64,000 nucleotides of DNA from Octopus sinensis (lineage: Eukaryota). Positions 7,192 to 19,122 of this stretch are shown piece after piece; position 1 is the stretch's first letter, and each line of letters opens with the position of its first letter. The DNA lies in the NCBI RefSeq assembly GCF_006345805.1, contig NC_043015.1:48856001-48920000 (forward strand), read 5' to 3'. The position numbers and the translations under genes were made by a program. Under the pieces are notes generated by a model. The model was given only the letters and a program-made list of their open reading frames with translations, ran no database searches and was not told the DNA's origin.

Positions 7192-7230
<39 letters not shown>

Positions 7231-9284
7231 TATATATTATATTCCAAACATTTATGAAGAAACAAATTCTATGGAGACACACGCAGTTGTAATTATGACA
7301 TATTTTCTATCAAGTGATGTTAGTAGTTTCTCAGATTGCCTGAGAACTTGAAAATGATGAGACAAGTGTTTAAAATTCCTTGAGTATCGTTGACTAAATC
7401 ACTTTGTCACTTGATTGCTTTCTTTAACTCAAAGAAAAAAAGAAAAGAAAATCCCAAGATCTATTGATATAAGTTTCAAAGAATTCTCTCCCTCTTTCTA
7501 ACTTCCTGACCCAAACAATATAAAAACTGGATAAAGAATCATTAAGAACCCTATTTATTTTGGTATCTTTAAAGAATAATGAAATAAAAGGTTTTTCATG
7601 AAACGTGAATACATATTTTACAAGTTTAACACTTTGGCATTTAAACCAACATTATCCAACCAAAATATTCTACCTGATTTATGTTCAAAGTGGCCTCTCA
7701 CACCTACCCTACAATGTCCTTCTAAAAATAAATGCCCACATCTTCAATTTCTTGAAGGCACAAGATAATTCATGATTAATCCAAGACAATGTAAATAAAT
7801 AAGCCCTAGATTTAACACAATAATCTAAATGTTAAAGGGTTACCTCACTTAACTACAATAATTCTTCAATTGGTTTCAGCTCAGAGCTGCAGCCATGCTG
7901 GGGCACTGCTGCTTTCAGTTACTCACTTTCTTTAACCAGATCTTTTTCGAGACATTCTGTCTTTGATACAATGTTACCACATTACTAGACCACCCACACT
8001 AACCCCTTACTTTATCTCTCTACTCCTACAGCAGTTCTTGTGTACCATTACCGCTGTGTATTATTCATTAAGCTAAACTGGAATATTGCTCCATCTAGCC
8101 TGCCATTCCTGGTAGAGCCATGGGAATAGAATCCCCAGGCACCTCCTCCATTACATACTATAAGAAGCAACCATCATTAGATATTTCTGGCTGAGTTCCC
8201 AAGCACAACTAAGACTATGGATATTATCCTATTCCTGCTGGTTGTGGGGAGTAGATTCTTCAGGAAACTCCTTCTTTCCACTTTCTGGATGGATTCTCAA
8301 GTGTGGCTGATTATAACTATGAATTTTATCCAACCATTTCACTTTTGCTCTACCTCTAAGTTTCCTGTCAGCTGGCTCAGCTTGGCTTGAAGAATTTGTC
8401 GTGCAATTTTTCTTCTCTGACATTCTAATCACACATCTGTAGCCTCAAAGCTGTGATCTGTTGATGTAGAGAAGTAGTGGCTCAACCTGAAGAGACTCCC
8501 TTGATCTCTGAGTTATGCAATGTGTTGAGTAAGGAATATCATTTTGTAAATAAACTCCATGTCTCTAAAGACCATACCTTAAACTATAAAATATATCACA
8601 ACTATGTAATAAACAGAATTAGCATTAATACAAGCCTCCACTTCACAAAACTAAACCTTCCCACCGATATATCCAGACTACCACGTATCACTTGTCTATT
8701 TTATCTATTGCTACCCATTACGATGGCTGTATATCATTTACAGAATCTTTTAAATTGTTTTATTTTCTTAGTTTCTGATAACAATCTCTCATTAAAAAAA
8801 AAAAAATCAGAGATTGTTCCTTTTTTTGAAACTGGCTCTTGAAACAGATATAAAGCTATAAATAATAGCAAGTAAATACAGGATTGAAAAGTTATTTTGG
8901 ATGGAAAATATTGAAGGCAGCCTCTGTCTTTTGCTATCCATGATTTTTTTCAACCAAATACTTATGTGCTGTTATTTATAGATTTATGTGTGCTTTGAGA
9001 GCCAATTCCAAAAAGGAATTTATTCATGTCCTCTCATAAGTTTATAAATTCTTTTGACATCAACATAAAAACTGAACATTTTCACCAGTGATGGTGACCA
9101 AATAAAAATGAACAAACTCATACATAGCTTTCAATGTATTTTAAAAACTTTTTATTTGGTATTCCCAATAAAGTTTTTGAATAATTTCAATCAAATCTAC
9201 TTTGTTAAAATTATAACACCCTATAATGTTGTAAGGTTTATCATTTTACCATTTCTTGATAGGGTGATGGGAAGGGAAATGTTT

Positions 9285-10442
9285 TTAAGCTGCTGGGTTT
9301 GTTACCTTGCCGATGAAATAAATCAATTCAGTTCTTCTGTCAGCAATTAAAAATATGAACGGGTGATTAACATCAAATTTCGTTCCAGTCTGGGCTGATA
9401 CTGGATCAATTACCACTTCTCCGCTTGCGGCATGAGCATCTGTTCCTTTTTCATTTACATCAATAAATGTTTTATGAAAGAATTTACTCACATACAAATC
9501 CTTCTCACTACTTATTCCTGATAAATTCGCTTTGCTGGCATCAAAAATATCAGAAAGACCAAGTTTTTGTAAAGTATCAGATAACTCGAAAGCACTTTGA
9601 AAATGAAACTTTGGTAAATATAACTCCAGAGCTAATCGTTCAAAGCCTTTTCTCTCTTTAGTTTCTTTGAGAAATTGTGCATTAATTTCCTTCTCTAAAG
9701 CAGCAAGACCATCCATTTTATTAGGAAGAATTACAAACATACTAAATTTCACTCCCATGTAAGGTAACTCTACAGCTTTATAGTTCTGGCTTATTTTGGT
9801 ATTAAAATCTTCAGATATAAACATAGAATCACAAGATACAGTCTTGCCAGAACTTAGATGAAACTCTCTAGATGATGTTACTCTTTCTGGGAATCTTGCA
9901 GCCCACATTCCTTCAAAGTGCATGGCATTAACGAGAAGTAACACTGTATCAGAGGACAAACTTTTACTTGGTAACAGATCTGTGATTTTGTTATAAGTCT
10001 CATTCTTCACCCACTTATTAATATCAATTCTTATTCTTTCAGCATTTTTAAAGAAATCTACATTTTTAACATCCGTGAAAAAATATTCTGAAATCTTGTG
10101 CTTATAGCTTTCTGAAATAGGGAATTTATCCTCAACATACAAACGATTCACCGATTTACTCATGTGAGCTTCATTTGAATTCTTCTGAACCGAAAAATAT
10201 TTTTTATAAGCCAAAGCTAAATCATTTGGTGTTGAAGTTACATTCAAAACATTTTTCAACTGCTCAGCTGAGTTTTGTTTTGCTCCTAAATAAACCATTG
10301 ATAAAATGGTAGCAACACTGAAGGGGGACATGAAGACATTTTCATTGGTTCCTATGACCATTTCTTGAAAAAGGCTGGATGTAAAATGATCAACTGATGC
10401 AGCCAGGTTTTTAATCTCTTGGTGCTGGTTGGATGAGTTCAT
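9285..10442 (-). CDS. Serpin, intracellular (clade-B/leukocyte elastase inhibitor-like), 385 aa, single coding exon
   Basis: Motifs NVFMSPFSV, INKWVKNETYNKITDLL, LLVNAMHFEGMW, LYLPKF, hinge DVNEKGTDA, FDVNHPFIFLI; pyrimidine tract plus AG acceptor at 10460-10461 just before the ATG at 10442; no signal peptide seen. Confidence 0.95.
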   Translation of the reverse strand: MNSSNQHQEIKNLAASVDHFTSSLFQEMVIGTNENVFMSPFSVATILSMVYLGAKQNSAEQLKNVLNVTSTPNDLALAYKKYFSVQKNSNEAHMSKSVNRLYVEDKFPISESYKHKISEYFFTDVKNVDFFKNAERIRIDINKWVKNETYNKITDLLPSKSLSSDTVLLLVNAMHFEGMWAARFPERVTSSREFHLSSGKTVSCDSMFISEDFNTKISQNYKAVELPYMGVKFSMFVILPNKMDGLAALEKEINAQFLKETKERKGFERLALELYLPKFHFQSAFELSDTLQKLGLSDIFDASKANLSGISSEKDLYVSKFFHKTFIDVNEKGTDAHAASGEVVIDPVSAQTGTKFDVNHPFIFLIADRRTELIYFIGKVTNPAA

Positions 10443-10747
10443 CTTCTTGCTATTAATTTCTATAAAAATTAAAAAGTGCAATTTAGTTTATTTAAGAATT
10501 CCACAAGCACAAAATAATTTCAGACCAAATTAATAGTGAACACCAAAAACTTATTCATTAATTCCATAATCGATTTAATTGTATTCTCACTCCAAAATTA
10601 TCACCTTCAAGCAGCTTCATAAATATTTCCAAAGCAATATTTAGATCAGCAATTACAATAGAAGTATTAAGTTAAAGAGTTAATGAGCTCAATTTGACCT
10701 TGGCACATATTTAGATGGAAGGAAGTCCCAAAAATAAGACAACAATA

Positions 10748-10827
10748 TTTCAACATATGTTTCGAAGACAACATGGTTTCATTCCAAAGGAATAAAGGGT
10801 GTAAGATGCAATCTTCTCATCAGGAAA
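10748..10827 (-). ncRNA. Type-I hammerhead ribozyme motif with a long stem-II loop
   Basis: Minus strand reads tttc CTGATGA GAAGA [43 nt] TCTTC GAAA CATATG TT gaaa; palindromic stem III. Confidence 0.6.
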
Positions 10828-11240
10828 GAAAGGGAGCCTCTCTCGACAACAAGACAAACCAAAATTTTGATGACCGCCTACATGGTAAACAAAACGATAA
10901 TAAGTGTTTTTAAAAAACCGTTAGAAGAATTGACGTCAAAGTTAGATAGTAGGAAGAGAAGCGTTAAAGGAATGATAGATAGGGAACCAGTGGATTAAGA
11001 ATGTTCCCTACCTATCATTCCTTTAACCCTTCTCTTCCTACTATCTAACTTTGACGTCAATTCTTCTAACGGTTTTTTAAAAACACTTATTATCGTTTTG
11101 TTTACCATGTAGGCGGTCATCAAAATTTTTGTTTGTCTTGTTGTCGAGAGAGGCTCCCTTTCTTTCCTGATGAGAAGATTGCATCTTACACCCTTTATTC
11201 CTTTGGAATGAAACCATGTTGTCTTCAAAACATATGTCGA
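10750..11240. repeat. Near-perfect palindrome (238-bp arms, 15-nt loop), Penelope-like, one hammerhead per arm
   Basis: 10750-10987 is the reverse complement of 11003-11240 with about 5 mismatches. Confidence 0.95.
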
Positions 11241-11243
11241 GAG
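11162..11243 (+). ncRNA. Hammerhead motif copy with G12>A (probably inactive)
   Basis: ctttc CTGATGA GAAGA [43 nt] TCTTC AAAA CATATG TC gagag. Confidence 0.55.
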
Positions 11244-11293
11244 TAAAGGAATTTTGTTAACATCTTCGTTCGACTCCATTCTTTCATTTATTC

Positions 11294-11363
<70 letters not shown>

Positions 11364-11583
11364 TATATATATGTATATATATATTATATATATATATATG
11401 TATATATATGTATGTATATATATATATACATATACATATACATACATATATATACATACGTACATACATATATACATACATACATACATACATATATATA
11501 TATATATATGAATACATACATACATACATACATATATATATATATGAATACATACATACATACATATATATATATATATATGA

Positions 11584-11616
<33 letters not shown>

Positions 11617-11638
11617 TATAAATATATATATATATATG
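11294..11638. repeat. Compound (TA)n/(TACA)n microsatellite
   Basis: Directly visible; source of the spurious YI/CMYV ORFs. Confidence 0.95.
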
Positions 11639-11924
11639 AGAAAGAGTGGGGAGAACACTGGCTCACTGGCTCATATAGTGGGAAAGATAGAGGTAGTGAC
11701 ATTAGCTTTTATATATATGTATACGTAAAAAAAAAGAGAGAGAGAGAGTAAAGTATGTCACTGGTAGAAATAGCAATAATTAAGGTCAGGAGGGAGACCT
11801 AGTTGTCAGTGTGCCAATGTGATATCAGTAAAATGAAGCCTTTCCGTCTCGCCTGGTTATCATTTTACTCACTATCTCCCTATCGATTACACTTACTTTC
11901 TCTGTGGTTACCTTACTTGTTCAA

Positions 11925-12196
11925 ATAATAATAATAATAATAATAATTGTGTACAGTGCTCAGGTGCACTACAACTCATCTAAAGTGTATATATAATCAG
12001 GTGTAGTTTTGGCGGATTTCGGAAAGCATGAGGGCCTTAAAAGATGCAGTGTCATGGCAGTCAACAACTGACGCAGGCAGTTTATTCCATGCTTCAGCAA
12101 CTCTGAGCGTGAAAAAATGTTTCCGAAAGTCATGGGAGCTGTATTGTTTTCTGACTTTGTAGGCATGTCCATGTGTGTTAGACACATGGAGATCAC
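11925..12196 (-). mobile_element. CR1-clade LINE 3' end with (ATT)n tail
   Basis: YKVRKQYSSHDFRKHFFTLRVAEAWNKLP on the minus strand, followed by a trinucleotide tail. Confidence 0.75.
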
Positions 12197-12544
12197 AAAC
12201 GCTATTGTACTTTAGAAGTCTTTGACCTCGAAAATAATCCTTTCTGTTATAGGCACAAGGCCAGAAATTTTTTAGGTGGGTGGGGTTTGTTTGTTGATTA
12301 CATTGATCCCCAGTGTTCAACTGGTACTCATTTCGTTGACTCTGAAAGAATGAAAGGCAATGTTAGCTTCAGTGGAATTTGAAATCAGAACATAATGGCA
12401 GATGAAATGTTTTTAGGCATTTTGTCAGGTGTGTTAAGAATTTTGCCAGCTTACTGCTTTATTCTAAAGAACAGTAATGGAATGTTGATTGTCTGTTTCA
12501 CTTTGTCAGCTTCAGATTCATTTAGAACAAGACTTTGAGTCTCT

Positions 12545-12757
12545 CTTTACTCTTTTACTCTTTTACTTCTTTCAGTCATTCGACTGCGGCCATGCTGGAG
12601 CACGGCCTTTAGTCGAGCAAATCGACCCCGGGACTTATTCTTTGTAAGCCCAGTACTTATTCTATCAGTCTCTTTTGCCGAACCGCTAAGTGACGGGACG
12701 TAAACACACCAGCATCGGTTGTCAAGCAATGCTAGGGGGACAAACACAGACACACAA

Positions 12758-12796
<39 letters not shown>

Positions 12797-12955
12797 CGAC
12801 AGGCTTCTTTCAGTTTCCGTCTACCAAATCCACTCACAAGGCATTGGTCGGCCCGGGGCTATAGCAGAAGACACTTGCCCAAGATGCCACGCAGTGGGAC
12901 TGAACCGGAACCATGTGGTTGGTTAGCAAGCTACTTACCACACAGCCACTCCTGC
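12545..12955 (-). mobile_element. SINE family A copy
   Basis: High similarity to 4816-5197 and 26585-27015. Confidence 0.85.
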
Positions 12956-13086
12956 GTCTGTGTATATCACAAGCCAAATCTGTTGATTTTATAAACAGAG
13001 ACCTTCAAGGCCACCCTTCAATGGGGCCATACCAATCATGTCTCTTTTAACAGAAAAAAAAAAAAAAAAAAAAAATTCAAGCACTT

Positions 13087-14751
13087 CCCATATACGAAAA
13101 CACCACAGCACCACACTCTTCCTTAACATGAGTATCACTCAGACTTTTCACAGTCACTCCAGATTTTTGACTTGACTATAGCTAAGCCCACTTTGGAGCC
13201 AGAAAATATTTCGGGCCCCAACACCTACTGACACTCCAAAAGACTTGAGTGAAGCTTAAAATTGAGTACCACTCCAACATCAAGAATGATACTACTGACA
13301 TCCTGGACACCATTCCAAGATGGGACCTCAGCTAATTGATATTCCGTCACTTCTGTCTCTGACTCCCCCATATACGAAAACACCATAGCACCACACTCTT
13401 CCTTAACATGAGTATCACTCAGACTTTTCACAGTCACTCCAGATTTTTGACTTGACTATAGCTAAGCCCACTTTGGAGCCAGAAAATATTTTGGGCCCCA
13501 ACACCTACTGACACTCCAAAAGACTTGAGTGAAGCTTAAAATTGAGTACCACTCCAACATCAGGAATGATACTACTGACATCCTGGACACCATTCCAAGA
13601 TGGGACCTCAGCTAATTGATATTCCGTCACTTCTGTCTCTGACTCCCCCATATACGAAAACACCATAGCACCACACTCTTCCTTAACATGAGTATCACTC
13701 AGACTTTTCACAGTCACTCCAGATTTTTGACTTGACTATAGCTAAGCCCACTTTGGAGCCAGAAAATATTTTGGGCCCCAACACCTACTGACACTCCAAA
13801 AGACTTGAGTGAAGCTTAAAATTGAGTACCACTCCAACATCAAGAATGATACTACTGACATCCTGGACACCATTCCAAGATGGGACCTCAGCTAATTGAT
13901 ATTCCGTCACTTCTGTCTCTGACTCCCCCATATACGAAAACACCATAGCACCACACTCTTCCTTAACATGAGTATCACTCAGACTTTTCACAGTCACTCC
14001 AGATTTTTGACTTGACTATAGCTAAGCCCACTTTGGAGCCAGAAAATATTTCGGGCCCCAACACCTACTGACACTCCAAAAGACTTGAGTGAAGCCTAAA
14101 ATTGAGTACCACTCCAACATCAGGAATGATACTACTGACATCCTGGACACCATTCCAAGATGGGACCTCAGCTAATTGATATTCCGTCACTTCTGTCTCT
14201 GACTCCCCCATATACGAAAACACCATAGCACCACACTCTTCCTTAACATGAGTATCACTCAGACTTTTCACAGTCACTCCAGATTTTTGACTTGACTATA
14301 GCTAAGCCCACTTTGGAGCCAGAAAATATTTCAGGCCCCAACAGCTACGGACACTCCAAAAGACTTGAGTGGAGCCTAAAATTGAGTACCACTCCAACAT
14401 CAGGAATGATACTCCAGGGATTCCCTGACTTGCGCGAGCCAACTTTTGATACCGAGTGTTCAGGTTGCACGAGTTGTATTCTCGACTTGCACTTGTTGTA
14501 AAAATACTTATTATCTATGGTTGCATTGCCTTGTCTGTTATCTTTCTCCAAGTGTTTCTTTAATATAACAATATTTAGCAGTTATCCCGGAAAATATTTA
14601 TAGAAGACAATATCTGGTATTTGACTTGTGCGAATTTCGAATTGCGTGTCCCCCAATTACTCACGCAAGTCGAGGAATCCCTGTACTGACATCCTGGACA
14701 CCATTCCAAGATGGGACCTCAGCTAATTGATATTCCGTCACTTCTGTCTCT
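13087..14751 (+). repeat. 280-bp tandem repeat x5 (fifth copy interrupted by a MITE)
   Basis: Units start at 13087, 13367, 13647, 13927 and 14207; four near-identical 70-aa ORFs occur at 280-bp spacing. Confidence 0.95.
14415..14683. mobile_element. 269-bp MITE, TIR CAGGGATTCC
   Basis: CAGGGATTCCCTGACTTGCGCGAG / CTCACGCAAGTCGAGGAATCCCTG; inserted at a TA of the repeat unit (flanks TC / TA). Confidence 0.85.
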
Positions 14752-15976
14752 GGCCCCACAGCTGCACTGTCTCTGCTGTCTTTCTCTTTTCTATCCCTAT
14801 TATAACAGCCTTATCTCCTCAATGTTGGCCGATCCACTCATTTCTCCACCACGACAAAATTCCATCATGGCTTTCATTCTCATGTGATTCATGCATTCAA
14901 CTACAATTTTAAAGCCCAATTATTTCATCAACCTACATTATTTCCTTTCTATTGCTCAGCTATATTTCTTTATTATTCCAGTTCTCTCTGTTATTTACAT
15001 TAGTCTGGCCTAATTCTTATTTATTTGAATAAACAAAGTGAGATCATGTGGATAGTTTTATTGAAACTTCTACCTTTGTTTTATGACTTAGGTTTGATTG
15101 ATCAGGTGTCAGTTTAACGTGATACACAGGTTCCTCCAAAAGAACTTCTAGAGTAATGTTAGTCAAAAGGGTACATAGCTAAGAGATCAGGGTGTCTCTT
15201 CCAACTGAGCCACTACTTCCCTGCTTCGAGGGGTTACAGCTCTGGTGCTATTGTCATGTGATTAGAATGTCACAAAAAAGAATTACAAGATGAATTCTTC
15301 AAGCTAAGCCAACCAGCAGGAGACAAAGGGGTAGATGTTTTTGATACCACCTTGTACACATACAACTTTGTAACTCCTGTTAGCAAATGAAACATCTGTA
15401 ATGGTGAATGAATAATACCAAAAAATTCTTTCCAATCTCCTCTTTATATATATATATATATATATATCATAATCATCTTTTAATATCCATTGTTCGTGCT
15501 GGCATGGGTTGCATGGTTTAAGCAAGGCTGGTAAGCTGAGGGGCTGCAGTAGACTCCAGTCTGATTTGGCTTGGTTTCTTCGGATGGATGCCCTTCCTAA
15601 TTCCAACCACACTGAGAGTGTAATGGGTGCTTTTGCATGACACCAGTATGTGCCACAACTAAAATTTCACTTGGCTTGATGGGTCTTCTCCCCTGGCACG
15701 GCATATTGCCTAAGGTCTCAGTCATTTGTCATTGCCCCCATGAGGCCCAATGCGCTAAAGGTACTTTTTACATGCCACCAGCACAGGTGCCAGTTATGCA
15801 ACGTTGGCATCAGCCTCCTTGCCTCCGTGCGACCCAATGCTCAACAGGTGCTTTTTACGTACCACATATAATGTGCGTATATGTATGTATACTAAAATGT
15901 TATACAGCAGTCAAGGGTGAAACTATAATGAACATTAAATGATGATGATTGTGTGTGTGTGCATATATATAGTGTA

Positions 15977-16192
15977 AGGCGGCGAGCTGGCAGACACGTT
16001 AGCACGCCGGGCGAAATGCTTAGCAGTAATTCGTCTGTCATTATGTTCCAAGTTCAAATTCCACCGAGGTCGACTTTGCCTTTCATCCTTTTGGGGTCGA
16101 TAAATAAAGTACCAGTTTCGCACTGGGGGTCGATGTAATCGAATTAATCCCTTTGTCCGTCCTGTTTTAGCCCCTTGTGGGCAGTAAAGAAA
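15977..16192 (+). mobile_element. SINE family B (GGCGGCGAGCTGGCAGA...GCCTTTCATCCTTTCGGGGTCGATAAA)
   Basis: tRNA-like head with a GTTCAAATTCC B box; further copies at 16631, 25480(-), 29600, 40390(-), 57780 and 59560. Confidence 0.8.
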
Positions 16193-19122
16193 TATATATA
16201 TATATATAGTACATATAAAGACTACCTCCACAAAACAAAAAGGTTAAAATCCCTAATATATTAATCAAACTGCTTGTAGACCAATGAACACCTAGATAGA
16301 AACATACAACCTTTACTTAAATACTTTGGTGAAAATCAAAGCACATGCAAAACAACTTTCTGTACTAACAAAGCCATGACATGCCTGATTAATAACTCCA
16401 ACCTCACAAATGAAAACAAGAAATACCCTAGATAACAACAACAAGTAAAGAATTGACTGGCTTAACCCTTAAGCATTCAGATTACTCTATCAAATGTAAT
16501 GTTTATTTTATCCCCATTGTATTGATTTAACCATGCATTATCTCATAGTTTGAGGTTTCCAAAAGGTGACTGTTTATTTTTAGAATGACATTGTAGAGTA
16601 GGTGTGAGAGACTACACATGGCCAATTATATGGCGGCGAGCTGGCAGAACCGTTAGCACGCCGGGTGAAATGCGTAGCTGTATTTCGTCTGCTGCTACGT
16701 TCTGAGTTCAAATTCCGCCGAGGACTACTTTGCCTTTCATCCTTTTGGGGTCGATAAATTAAGTACCAGTTATGCACTGGGGTCAATGTAATCGACTTAA
16801 TCCATTTGTCTGTCCTTGTTTGTCCCCTCTGTGTCTAGCCCCTTGTGGGTAGTAAAGAAATATACACATGGCCAATTTGAATGTCAAAACAGATAGAATA
16901 TTCGGGCTGGATATGATCGGTTTAAATGGTAAAGAGTTTAAACTTATCACCAACATCCTTTTGGAACACAAAGTTGACACACCCAATTACAAATGGCTTA
17001 AATACTGGACTTTGTACCTTTGATTTTTACATTGTCAGAGCAAAAGGATTAAATCCAACAATACCAAGAGCAACAAAATTACTCTCACACCTCCTGTCTA
17101 CCTGACAAAATTCCACATGCATGAATGAATTCTTAACACTAACATAACCCCAAATTTAATCAATTAAAAAATTTTCCCAAACACTTGTCCATGACAACCT
17201 ACCACAAAAGCCTAATTACCACCCAACTCAAACCCACACACCCAAAGAAAATATATGAAGTTCAAACTAACTCTAATAAAGGTCTCCCTCCTTACCTAAT
17301 GTCTTGGCTAGCAAAAACTTCGAAGTCACAGTCAACAACATTCTTGTTTAAGAATAATAAATTTGTACTCTACAAAAGTACAGAGTAATCCATCAGATTA
17401 AAGTAAAACTGTTTTTAATATAACTGAACATAAAAACAAACAATATATTACATGTATGTATACTAAAATATAATACAAATTAGTGGTGAATGTGTGTGTA
17501 TGTATATATATATATATATGCATGTATGTATAAACACAAACATACCTGTTATAGTTTGTAGGGTAACAACTATGAACAGCAAGACAAATCCATCTCGTTT
17601 CTTTAACATCTTTGTTAAGACTTATCCAAAAACAGACTTGACTGAGGATTGATTTCAGATTTGTGTTGGGCAAGTTTTTACAATAATATCCACAGAAAGA
17701 GTTTACAAACAGCTGAGAAAAGCAAGCAAGTTGTGTAGAATAAGTTATTTTTGAAAGTATTGATTTTTTTCTTTTATTAACGAGAAGTTGAAATTACTTT
17801 ACATCTTCACCTGAAACACTTTATATTGACTTTTTATAGTTGTATTTGTCTTCACAGTGAAACATGACACAAAGGAAATTAGCAAACAAAACAATGTCAA
17901 CAGACTGATTTCTATAGTGAGATGGTTTGAAGTTTGGTAGGACAAAATTAATTACCTTCATTTGACCCATGGAAAAGCGGACATTAAAATTGTGGTCATG
18001 GTGGTGATGATTGAATGAGGTGAGCGGGATGAAGTAGAGTTTTGAAGTAAAATGGACCCAATGGATGGTTCAACAGCTGAAATAAGCAAATAAAAGGAAA
18101 AATTGATAAAGGAATAAACCAATGGGAGACTGCGATTGTATGATGCATAAATGGTATCTATAAAAGTAGCCTTTGAGGACTCAGTTATTTTTGGTGTTGT
18201 AGATGGAGTAGGAATGAGAGTTTGTGGACGTCTTTAGAATAATAATGTAAAAGTTCAACAATCAGACATTCTGCATGGATGGATGTTTAGTGCTGAAAGC
18301 TGGGATGTGGAGCCAGGGTTCACCTTCACCCTGTGTCAATCGATGATGATCATGTACGAGTCAGTCACCATGCATCCCTTCCCTGGTCATACACTGCAAA
18401 CACCTACTTACTATATCCCCATATTCTTTCATTTGAAGTTCACAGCCGTTGTATAAGCAACATGACAACACTTAGATTGGCAACACTTAGATTGTGACAG
18501 TTTATATTTTATTTCATAATAATGTGTTGGCCATAGGAAGTTGATGCCTAGAGTTCATGACAGTTCATCTTGTTTTATGTCCAGACGCCATATGGTTTTT
18601 ATGTTGAAGTAATGAGATGCATTCCAATACAGAACATAGACAAGGCAGCGAGTTGGTAGAATTGTTTGTACACTGGACTAAAGCCTGGTAGCATTTTTGT
18701 CTGTCTTTATGTTCTGAATTCGAATTCTGCTGAGGTTGACTTTACTGTCCATCCTTTCGGGGTCGATAAAAAAAGTACCAGTTGAAAACTGGAGGGTCAA
18801 AGTAATCAACTTAAAACCCTCCCTTGAAATCGCTGGTCTTGTGGCAGAATTTGAAACCAAAATAAAAACATGGATATAGATGTAGATGTCTTGATTGTAA
18901 GGTCTTGGTGTTTGATATAGGGGTTGAAGAGAAAAGGGATATTAGAGAAAGGGAAGGGGATTATAGTATGCATTCATCCCCTAATATGGAGATTGTTGGA
19001 GTCATTAGGGTGTTCAGTGGATATATTAATGTTGGTGGGGATGGGGTTTGAGAAAACAAGGGAGATAACTTATACTTACCACAGCCACTATCATCGTTTA
19101 ACGCCTGCCTTCCATGCTGACA

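Follow-up and report, generated by a model that had tools for sequence, protein, structure and literature searches.

The palindrome studied here, in a 64,000-nucleotide stretch of the Octopus sinensis genome (the window), is very probably a pair of 3' ends, 5'-truncated and placed head to head, of a Penelope-like element of the Hydra clade: an ordinary insertion into a serpin intron that was later damaged. On this account the locus itself is ordinary transposon debris, and the hammerhead motif in its arms likely serves the element and not a switch in the serpin gene. Its history would have begun with an endonuclease nick in (TA)n, the insertion likely having occurred at a (TA)n tract; two cDNAs would have started at the two 3' end sites of the family, ~+55 and ~+210 from the ribozyme cut site, and would have been joined at their truncated 5' ends, and a later deletion at microhomology would have shortened the left arm by ~210 nt and may also have taken out ~1 kb of host intron. 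In the serpin pre-mRNA, a long duplex with both hammerheads silent is predicted.

The palindrome and its host intron

The longest inverted repeat in the window consists of two 238-nt arms, 10750-10987 and 11003-11240, which are 98% complementary, differ at 5 positions and lie 15 nt apart; the initial annotation had described it in the same terms (238-bp arms, about 5 mismatches, a 15-nt loop). Of the 15 bases in the loop, 8 belong to the element and only 7 are filler. The left arm is 93-96% identical to other copies of the family and the right arm 95-98%; four of the five differences fall in the left arm, one of the four being host-derived. The right arm continues to 11297, the normal end of the repeat, where (TA)n follows. 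Both arms contain CUGAUGA, 53 nt and (G/A)AAA-CAUAUG-U(C/U), again as first described; CUGAUGA starts at 10823 on the minus strand and at 11167 on the plus strand, with 53 nt between it and G12. At base 11122 and at the corresponding base of the left arm stands a substitution that 1 of 28 other copies also has; this hints at a single source template or at conversion. The features of the locus are as follows.

9285-10459, minus strand: main coding exon of the serpin gene, acceptor at 10459 (Pfam Serpin, E 2.9e-105; in two RNA-like runs the contigs depart from the sequence at 10461)
10460-17545, minus strand: GT-AG intron of 7.1 kb, containing the palindrome
17546-17609, minus strand: upstream coding exon with a predicted signal peptide
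10750-10755: host/element microhomology at the left junction; five of six bases match the element, 10752 is the host letter (the paralogue alignment ends at 10755)
10756-10994, minus strand: left arm, 5'-truncated 3' end of a Penelope-like element, probably of the Hydra clade, with the 3' end and tail missing (identity to family copies)
10995-11001: 7-nt filler between the two 5'-truncated ends
11002-11297, plus strand: right arm, 3' end of the same element, likewise 5'-truncated (it stops at the short end of the family, ~55-59 nt past the cut site)
11294-11637: (TA)n/(TACA)n microsatellite adjoining the element end, the likely target site (family ends adjoin (TA)n)

The serpin open frame on the minus strand spans 9285-10487, and its acceptor at 10459 is 291 nt from the palindrome, in agreement with the ~290 bp first given. 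The loose end of a contig from run X13 maps exactly to 17548 and thereby defines the GT-AG intron; this contig, from another organism, has the window letter at 8 of the 9 sites that distinguish the serpin gene from its paralogue. Joined to the main exon, 17546-17609 translates to P0123, labelled as an Octopus sinensis serpin isoform, with 0 differences. Thus, the placement of the palindrome in a 5' intron of the serpin gene stands as far as intronic position is concerned, but in the annotated isoform the upstream exon encodes a signal peptide and is not solely 5' UTR. Sequencing runs are called RNA-like here by guess. In one of them, X10, a low-depth contig covers 10443-10691 of the intron; the RNA-like contigs stop short of the palindrome centre and are uninformative as to transcription there.

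Several further observations concern the serpin gene and these runs. A contig of X10 with a depth of 402 joins window position 10856 to 11165 with 3 letters between, and is likely a palindromic family copy from elsewhere that is abundant in that run. Runs X2, X4 and X10 contain a serpin haplotype with one base inserted in the coding exon at 10192, possibly a pseudogene copy. A 280-bp tandem repeat (4.7 copies, 98% matches) occupies 13087-14413 of the intron and is absent from the paralogue alignment. Elsewhere on the same contig (G000:C19:28.54-28.74 Mb), many serpin-like matches of 76-82% identity are clustered in both orientations.

What would such a structure do in a transcript? The predicted fold of the 601-nt minus-strand region has an energy of -436 kcal/mol, as compared with a mean of -130 for 20 shuffles. 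Repeat duplexes are heavily edited in animals, and cephalopods are known for heavy editing. The duplex might be a passive by-product, subject to editing by ADAR or to dicing but without regulatory meaning, a reading compatible with an ordinary insertion and one that we consider evenly poised: the 238-bp arms, 98% complementary, lie in a transcribed intron, but the letter differences in the arms are also present in DNA-like runs, as judged from contigs only. At this locus we expect a stable duplex, possibly edited, without a switch. By extrapolation the genome holds several hundred such palindromes, which could supply double-stranded RNA in octopus.

The Penelope-like family and its inverted insertions

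A genome search gave 1,594 candidates; the 40 that were scored show 92-96% identity. Longer copies have reading frames that are open for 455-670 aa and include DKT, YRDD and an endonuclease at the C terminus; their protein matches a Hydra-type protein with an E value of 2e-95; in copy L164, a 644-aa frame runs from the RT core to the end of the endonuclease and aligns with Hydra-type proteins. The Penelope-like origin proposed in the initial annotation is thus borne out by RT and a GIY-YIG endonuclease in the longer copies of the family, of which the window copy is the non-coding 3' end only. DKT stands in place of DKG (QSDKTG in L148, L156 and L161), and the endonuclease has CxxC and CxH around a conserved E and N (CNIC..E..LVN..KCKH). 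At the N-terminal RWK position, the sole copy that reaches so far, L148, reads RWLAFF. The CxCX5C linker, present in 6 of the 7 nearest relatives, is absent from all 20 open linkers and is replaced by a tract of 78-154 aa with 20-33% Asn. The 7 homologs found carry the Hydra motifs; Pfam returned GIY-YIG below threshold only (E 0.033) and left the RT unmatched, and the endonuclease, used by itself as query for homologs, gave no match. Subfamilies diverge to ~59-60% endonuclease identity. Motifs, best hits and the published alignment point to a variant of the Hydra clade rather than a typical member, and we file the family as a variant because the CxCX5C linker is absent.

The accessible part of PMC8557442 describes the Hydra clade by a C-terminal endonuclease of the GIY-YIG type without CCHH, DKT, a 3' hammerhead and (TA)n flanks. 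With this clade, including Hydra-1_Obim of Octopus bimaculoides, our family shares the C-terminal GIY-YIG without CCHH, CxxC and CxH, DKT, the 3' hammerhead, the (TA)n flanks and the inverted 5'-truncated copy; it differs in an Asn-rich tract for the CxCX5C linker, in RWL for RWK in the one copy that extends there, and in a tail of ~155 nt where Hydra elements have 30-40 (PMC8557442, as far as available). Hydra-1_Obim is another family: the same source gives its hammerhead a stem II of 7 bp and a loop of 8 nt (PMC8557442). Penelope elements of the rotifer Adineta vaga, in the available text of PMC3846280, also form inverted repeats that lie head to head, one of them tailed, and have an Asn-rich insert between RT and endonuclease; they are low-copy, however, with inserts of several hundred residues, whereas the octopus insert of 78-154 aa takes the place of the Cys linker in a high-copy family. 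The literature searched contains no description of the octopus family or of its long-stem hammerhead; Repbase and Dfam lay outside its scope, so that the family may be catalogued there.

Three observations on protein frames stand beside these results. Relative to P0128, the long copies L156, L164 and others have a second insert of ~50 aa after the RT thumb. A 310-aa frame (L037:2006-2935, plus strand), with a CxxxxCxxC linker and an end resembling GIY-YIG, belongs to a further Penelope-like element, which we take to be Neptune-like. A 323-aa frame at L033:7595-8563 on the minus strand presumably encodes a Tc1/mariner-like transposase.

In this family the inverted palindrome is the routine insertion form. 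An 18-mer of the 3' half of the ribozyme has 1,963 exact matches in the genome, and among 100 matches listed, 40 form 20 head-to-head pairs (minus/plus) within 3 kb, as compared with 1 tail-to-tail pair (plus/minus). The earlier remark that Penelope-like elements often form inverted structures therefore applies here, with at least 20 such pairs among the matches listed, and 5' truncation, an inverted 5' copy and a tail at one end are all found in the family; an inverted form with a one-sided tail is known from the available parts of PMC8557442 and PMC3846280. By a crude rule, 3' ends are bimodal, 60 of 114 meeting (TA)n at +40-69 past the cut site and 31 of 114 at +200-219. Early end classifiers miscalled tails that start with three TA units, and pairs were therefore classed by an alignment rule. 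One short and one long end were found in 24 of 25 classifiable pairs from 30 loci and in 26 of 27 from 29 further loci, that is in 50 of 52; the rule was fixed after the second set had been viewed, so that this set is not strictly blind, and apparent duplicates were skipped in choosing it. Both exceptional pairs are long-long. No rule governs which arm reaches further 5' (short 23, long 17, equal 6 and 3 unresolved among 49 pairs), and, as regards a common template for the two arms of a pair, arm-arm identity is about equal to that with the best other copy in 18 pairs. The right arm in the window is of the short type; the left arm was thus most likely long, which would put its loss at ~210 nt.

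The Cys linker has been proposed to help in the targeting of (TA)n; the ends of the family adjoin (TA)n even with the Asn-rich tract in its place, a combination that makes the linker-targeting idea directly testable. Of 114 ends, 106 are followed within 330 nt by (TA)3 or more, a count that includes (TA)n of target and of slippage origin alike, and both outer flanks have (TA)5 or more at 25 of 29 pair loci, a count taken apart from any background rate.

Does the geometry of the pairs say more about the way they are made? The near-strict rule of one short and one long end constrains models of inverted insertion by Penelope-like elements. One such model would have the octopus Hydra lineage record a two-ended integration: two RNAs would pair through stem III of their hammerheads, and a dimeric RT-endonuclease would prime one at +55 and the other at +210 on opposite strands of (TA)n, yielding the one-tailed palindromes seen in 50 of 52 pairs. 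Were it true, the ribozyme would, besides cutting, act as a signal for template pairing, and (TA)n could be targeted without need of the Cys linker. The Poseidon element PAc of Anolis, in the available text of PMC11167929, resembles our family in that its tail is defined by two RT start sites, its targets are AT-rich and both strands are cut and extended; PAc, however, is of a different clade and shows no strand preference of the start sites in vitro, whereas the octopus pairs have one of each end (PMC11167929). We regard this model as improbable.

The left junction

A paralogue of the serpin gene is found in inverted orientation ~14 kb away (G000:C19:48850300-48856000; L135, L144). It is 95% identical to the window over 7227-10755 and lacks the element; its frame is open and its intron much shorter. 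At the left junction of the window the paralogue reads TATTTCAACA, from which it follows that 10750-10755 is host sequence, microhomologous to the element at 5 of 6 bases. That arm identity stops 2 nt past the predicted cleavage site, to which the initial annotation had drawn attention, is accounted for by this microhomology. Beyond the junction, ~975 nt of the paralogue intron are unmatched in the window, the window has ~5.4 kb extra, and homology resumes at 17157; between window and paralogue, neither a target-site duplication nor a clean empty site was found, and in view of both the missing empty site and these differences we infer the order of events. A contig of run X2 aligns just to 10755, with 195 further letters unaligned. 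In run X4, which is from another organism, a contig reaches 10777, 28 letters into the arm and below our bridging standard; the junction seems to be present in that organism and so may be older than one species. Separately, the loose end of a contig from X10 maps exactly to an alternative upstream exon of the paralogue; a similar donor lies near 17957 in the window.

A deletion at microhomology most simply accounts for the left junction. Alternatively, the left arm could have been copied from ribozyme-cleaved RNA, primed by host DNA on its last three bases, and would then record cleavage in vivo. The junction does lie within 3 nt before position 17, and three other copies (L041-L043) have their ends no more than 4 nt from the cut site. 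There is no significant excess of such ends: they number 4 in 1,963, the window included, against 1 in 1,357 for a control 20 nt downstream (Fisher p 0.65), where inspection had reduced 9 pattern hits to 4 true ends and 11 control hits to 1, with a filter that sees about one third of true ends. The 5/6 microhomology, moreover, extends past the cut site, ~975 nt of host intron are missing as well, and the family ends cluster at the two positions given above, so that we consider copying from cleaved RNA quite unlikely at this junction.

The hammerhead in the family and at the locus

Positions are given in the conventional hammerhead numbering of the C3-H17 core. A pattern of CTGANGA, 35-65 nt and CGAAACATATGTC has 2,941 exact matches in the genome and 0 for the reversed control, which is the genome-wide family search that the initial annotation had called for. 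Three subfamilies were sampled by tags outside the core, giving 83 copies of which 50 reach the core; it is intact in 38 of the 50, N7 being variable. The type I core (C3 U4 G5 A6 N7 G8 A9, G12 A13 A14, A15.1-U16.1 and H17) has the canonical base as its commonest letter in all three subfamilies, and these agree in the commonest letter at 16 of 16 core and junction columns, as compared with 25 of the 51 columns within stem II and 21 of the 55 upstream. Across 20 aligned copies, 84% of stem cells are paired versus 32-49% in slid controls. The structure was drawn from one member and the rows are related; the alignment leaves out L119 and seven cluster representatives with truncated or altered flanks, and contains the right copy of the window in place of its left. 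Paired-cell count and score exceed those of all 500 shuffles, values that the relatedness of the rows can inflate; 7 of 27 pairs, in stems I and II, have changed on both sides, a number also reached by 272 of 500 shuffles. One stem I pair is U-A in 11 rows and C-G in 7, and stem III is invariant and thus uninformative. Core and stems are therefore conserved among family copies, as the proposed hammerhead with its palindromic stem III requires, and this conservation and pairing are indirect evidence of selection in an active lineage.

The stem II noted as long in the initial annotation is so throughout the family, with inserts of 53-59 nt, mostly 53, 55 or 58-59; in 26 published Hydra hammerhead rows (PMC8557442), stem II has 3-7 bp, the loop 3-10 nt and the insert ~25 nt at most. 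A search of window positions 9000-13000 against Rfam gave no hammerhead among 41 matches with E up to 10, all hairpin or microsatellite noise, consistent with the long stem-II insert. With at least 2,941 long-stem-II motifs missed by Rfam here, cephalopod ribozymes have likely been undercounted. PLE-X1_sMoe of Selaginella, flagged as non-canonical, provides a precedent for a long stem II: there stem II plus loop likewise comprises 53 nt (PMC8557442, File S2, as available). That element, however, is an endonuclease-less plant element with an rDNA target and one large loop (PMC8557442, File S2). With the minimal hammerheads of Penelope-like elements, as described in the available part of PMC4209133, the octopus motif shares the type I core, G10.1-C11.1, a short palindromic stem III and a predicted dimer; it differs in a stem II that is much longer and contains an internal loop and an apical hairpin, in lacking the extra base between A9 and G10.1, and in a stem I that can extend to ~10 bp (PMC4209133).

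Folding predictions for the family motif are mixed. Unconstrained RNAalifold gave other, weak helices and did not recover the hammerhead fold, and monomers fold no better than shuffles (z -0.5 to -1.1) with the exception of stem II taken by itself (z -2.4). Stem III, of 8 nt, can pair with itself in a dimer; by prediction the active dimer lies 11.8 kcal/mol below two active monomers, with other dimer folds lower still. In the available texts, minimal hammerheads of this kind do not cleave as monomers (PMC4209133), and that of PAc is active only with protein (PMC11167929). We therefore think it likely that the hammerhead is functional in the parent element, probably as a stem-III dimer with help from protein, and that it would not be so at this locus, where the two motifs read as follows.

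10748-10827, minus strand: serpin-sense motif; CUGAUGA 10823-10817, stem II 10816-10764, GAAA 10763-10760, stem III 10760-10753, position 17 at 10752, 3' strand of stem I 10751-10748
11157-11249, plus strand: serpin-antisense motif; CUGAUGA 11167-11173, stem II 11174-11226, G12A at 11227, C17 at 11238

The plus-strand copy retains the family stem I (11162-11166/11239-11243, with an extension), which the minus-strand copy has lost. G12 acts as the general base of the hammerhead, and G12A abolishes activity. In the plus-strand copy this position is indeed A (11227), as first noted; it lies within a CpG, and 24 of 28 family copies have G. The minus-strand copy does have all core bases, a GUU triplet and a 4-bp stem I, much as first described; yet position 17 and the 3' strand of stem I ('gaaa', 10751-10748) are host DNA, so that the copy lacks a cleavage site and stem I of its own and its stem I pairs by chance. 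Nor does GUU reflect a CpG transition, as had been supposed: by the paralogue its last base is the host letter, and 28 of 28 family copies have C17.

Could serpin pre-mRNA nevertheless toggle between a duplex, as substrate of ADAR or Dicer, and a self-cleaving hammerhead, and so regulate the serpin? This was the switch proposed in the initial annotation, and the intronic position, the core bases with the GUU triplet and the chance stem I, and the X10 contig over 10443-10691 would fit it. The active fold of the minus-strand copy, however, is predicted to be 10.5 kcal/mol uphill on its own and 113 kcal/mol uphill within the palindrome; the same cost on its own is 3.2-4.3 kcal/mol in two family copies. 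The ribozymes being on opposite strands, one transcript carries only one of them, and for the serpin-sense ribozyme the complementary, blocking arm is transcribed first. Its cut site is a host patchwork, the 95%-identical paralogue has no element and the X2 contig also breaks off at 10755, palindromes of this kind are common genome-wide, and the published hammerheads are inactive as monomers or without protein in the sources just cited. A switch is thus highly improbable, and the sense ribozyme is better read as the broken part of a routine insertion; from the predicted energies, both hammerheads would be silent and the pre-mRNA would form the long duplex. An assembly artefact from a fold-back read, of the kind by which perfect palindromes can arise in long-read data, is more improbable still, given five arm differences that fit separate decay, a 7-nt filler and a layout seen at dozens of other loci.

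Hammerheads on both strands have parallels in the available texts: the Hydra element Penelope-13_HM is listed with them (PMC8557442), and in Schistosoma, pairs lie on opposite strands 100-700 bp apart (PMC4209133). Finally, a different hammerhead-like motif is found at L119:1562-1677 on the minus strand; this copy gave no protein match to the octopus Hydra-clade family, and its motif has CUGAAGA, a long insert, the same stem III and a weak stem I, followed by (TA)n.
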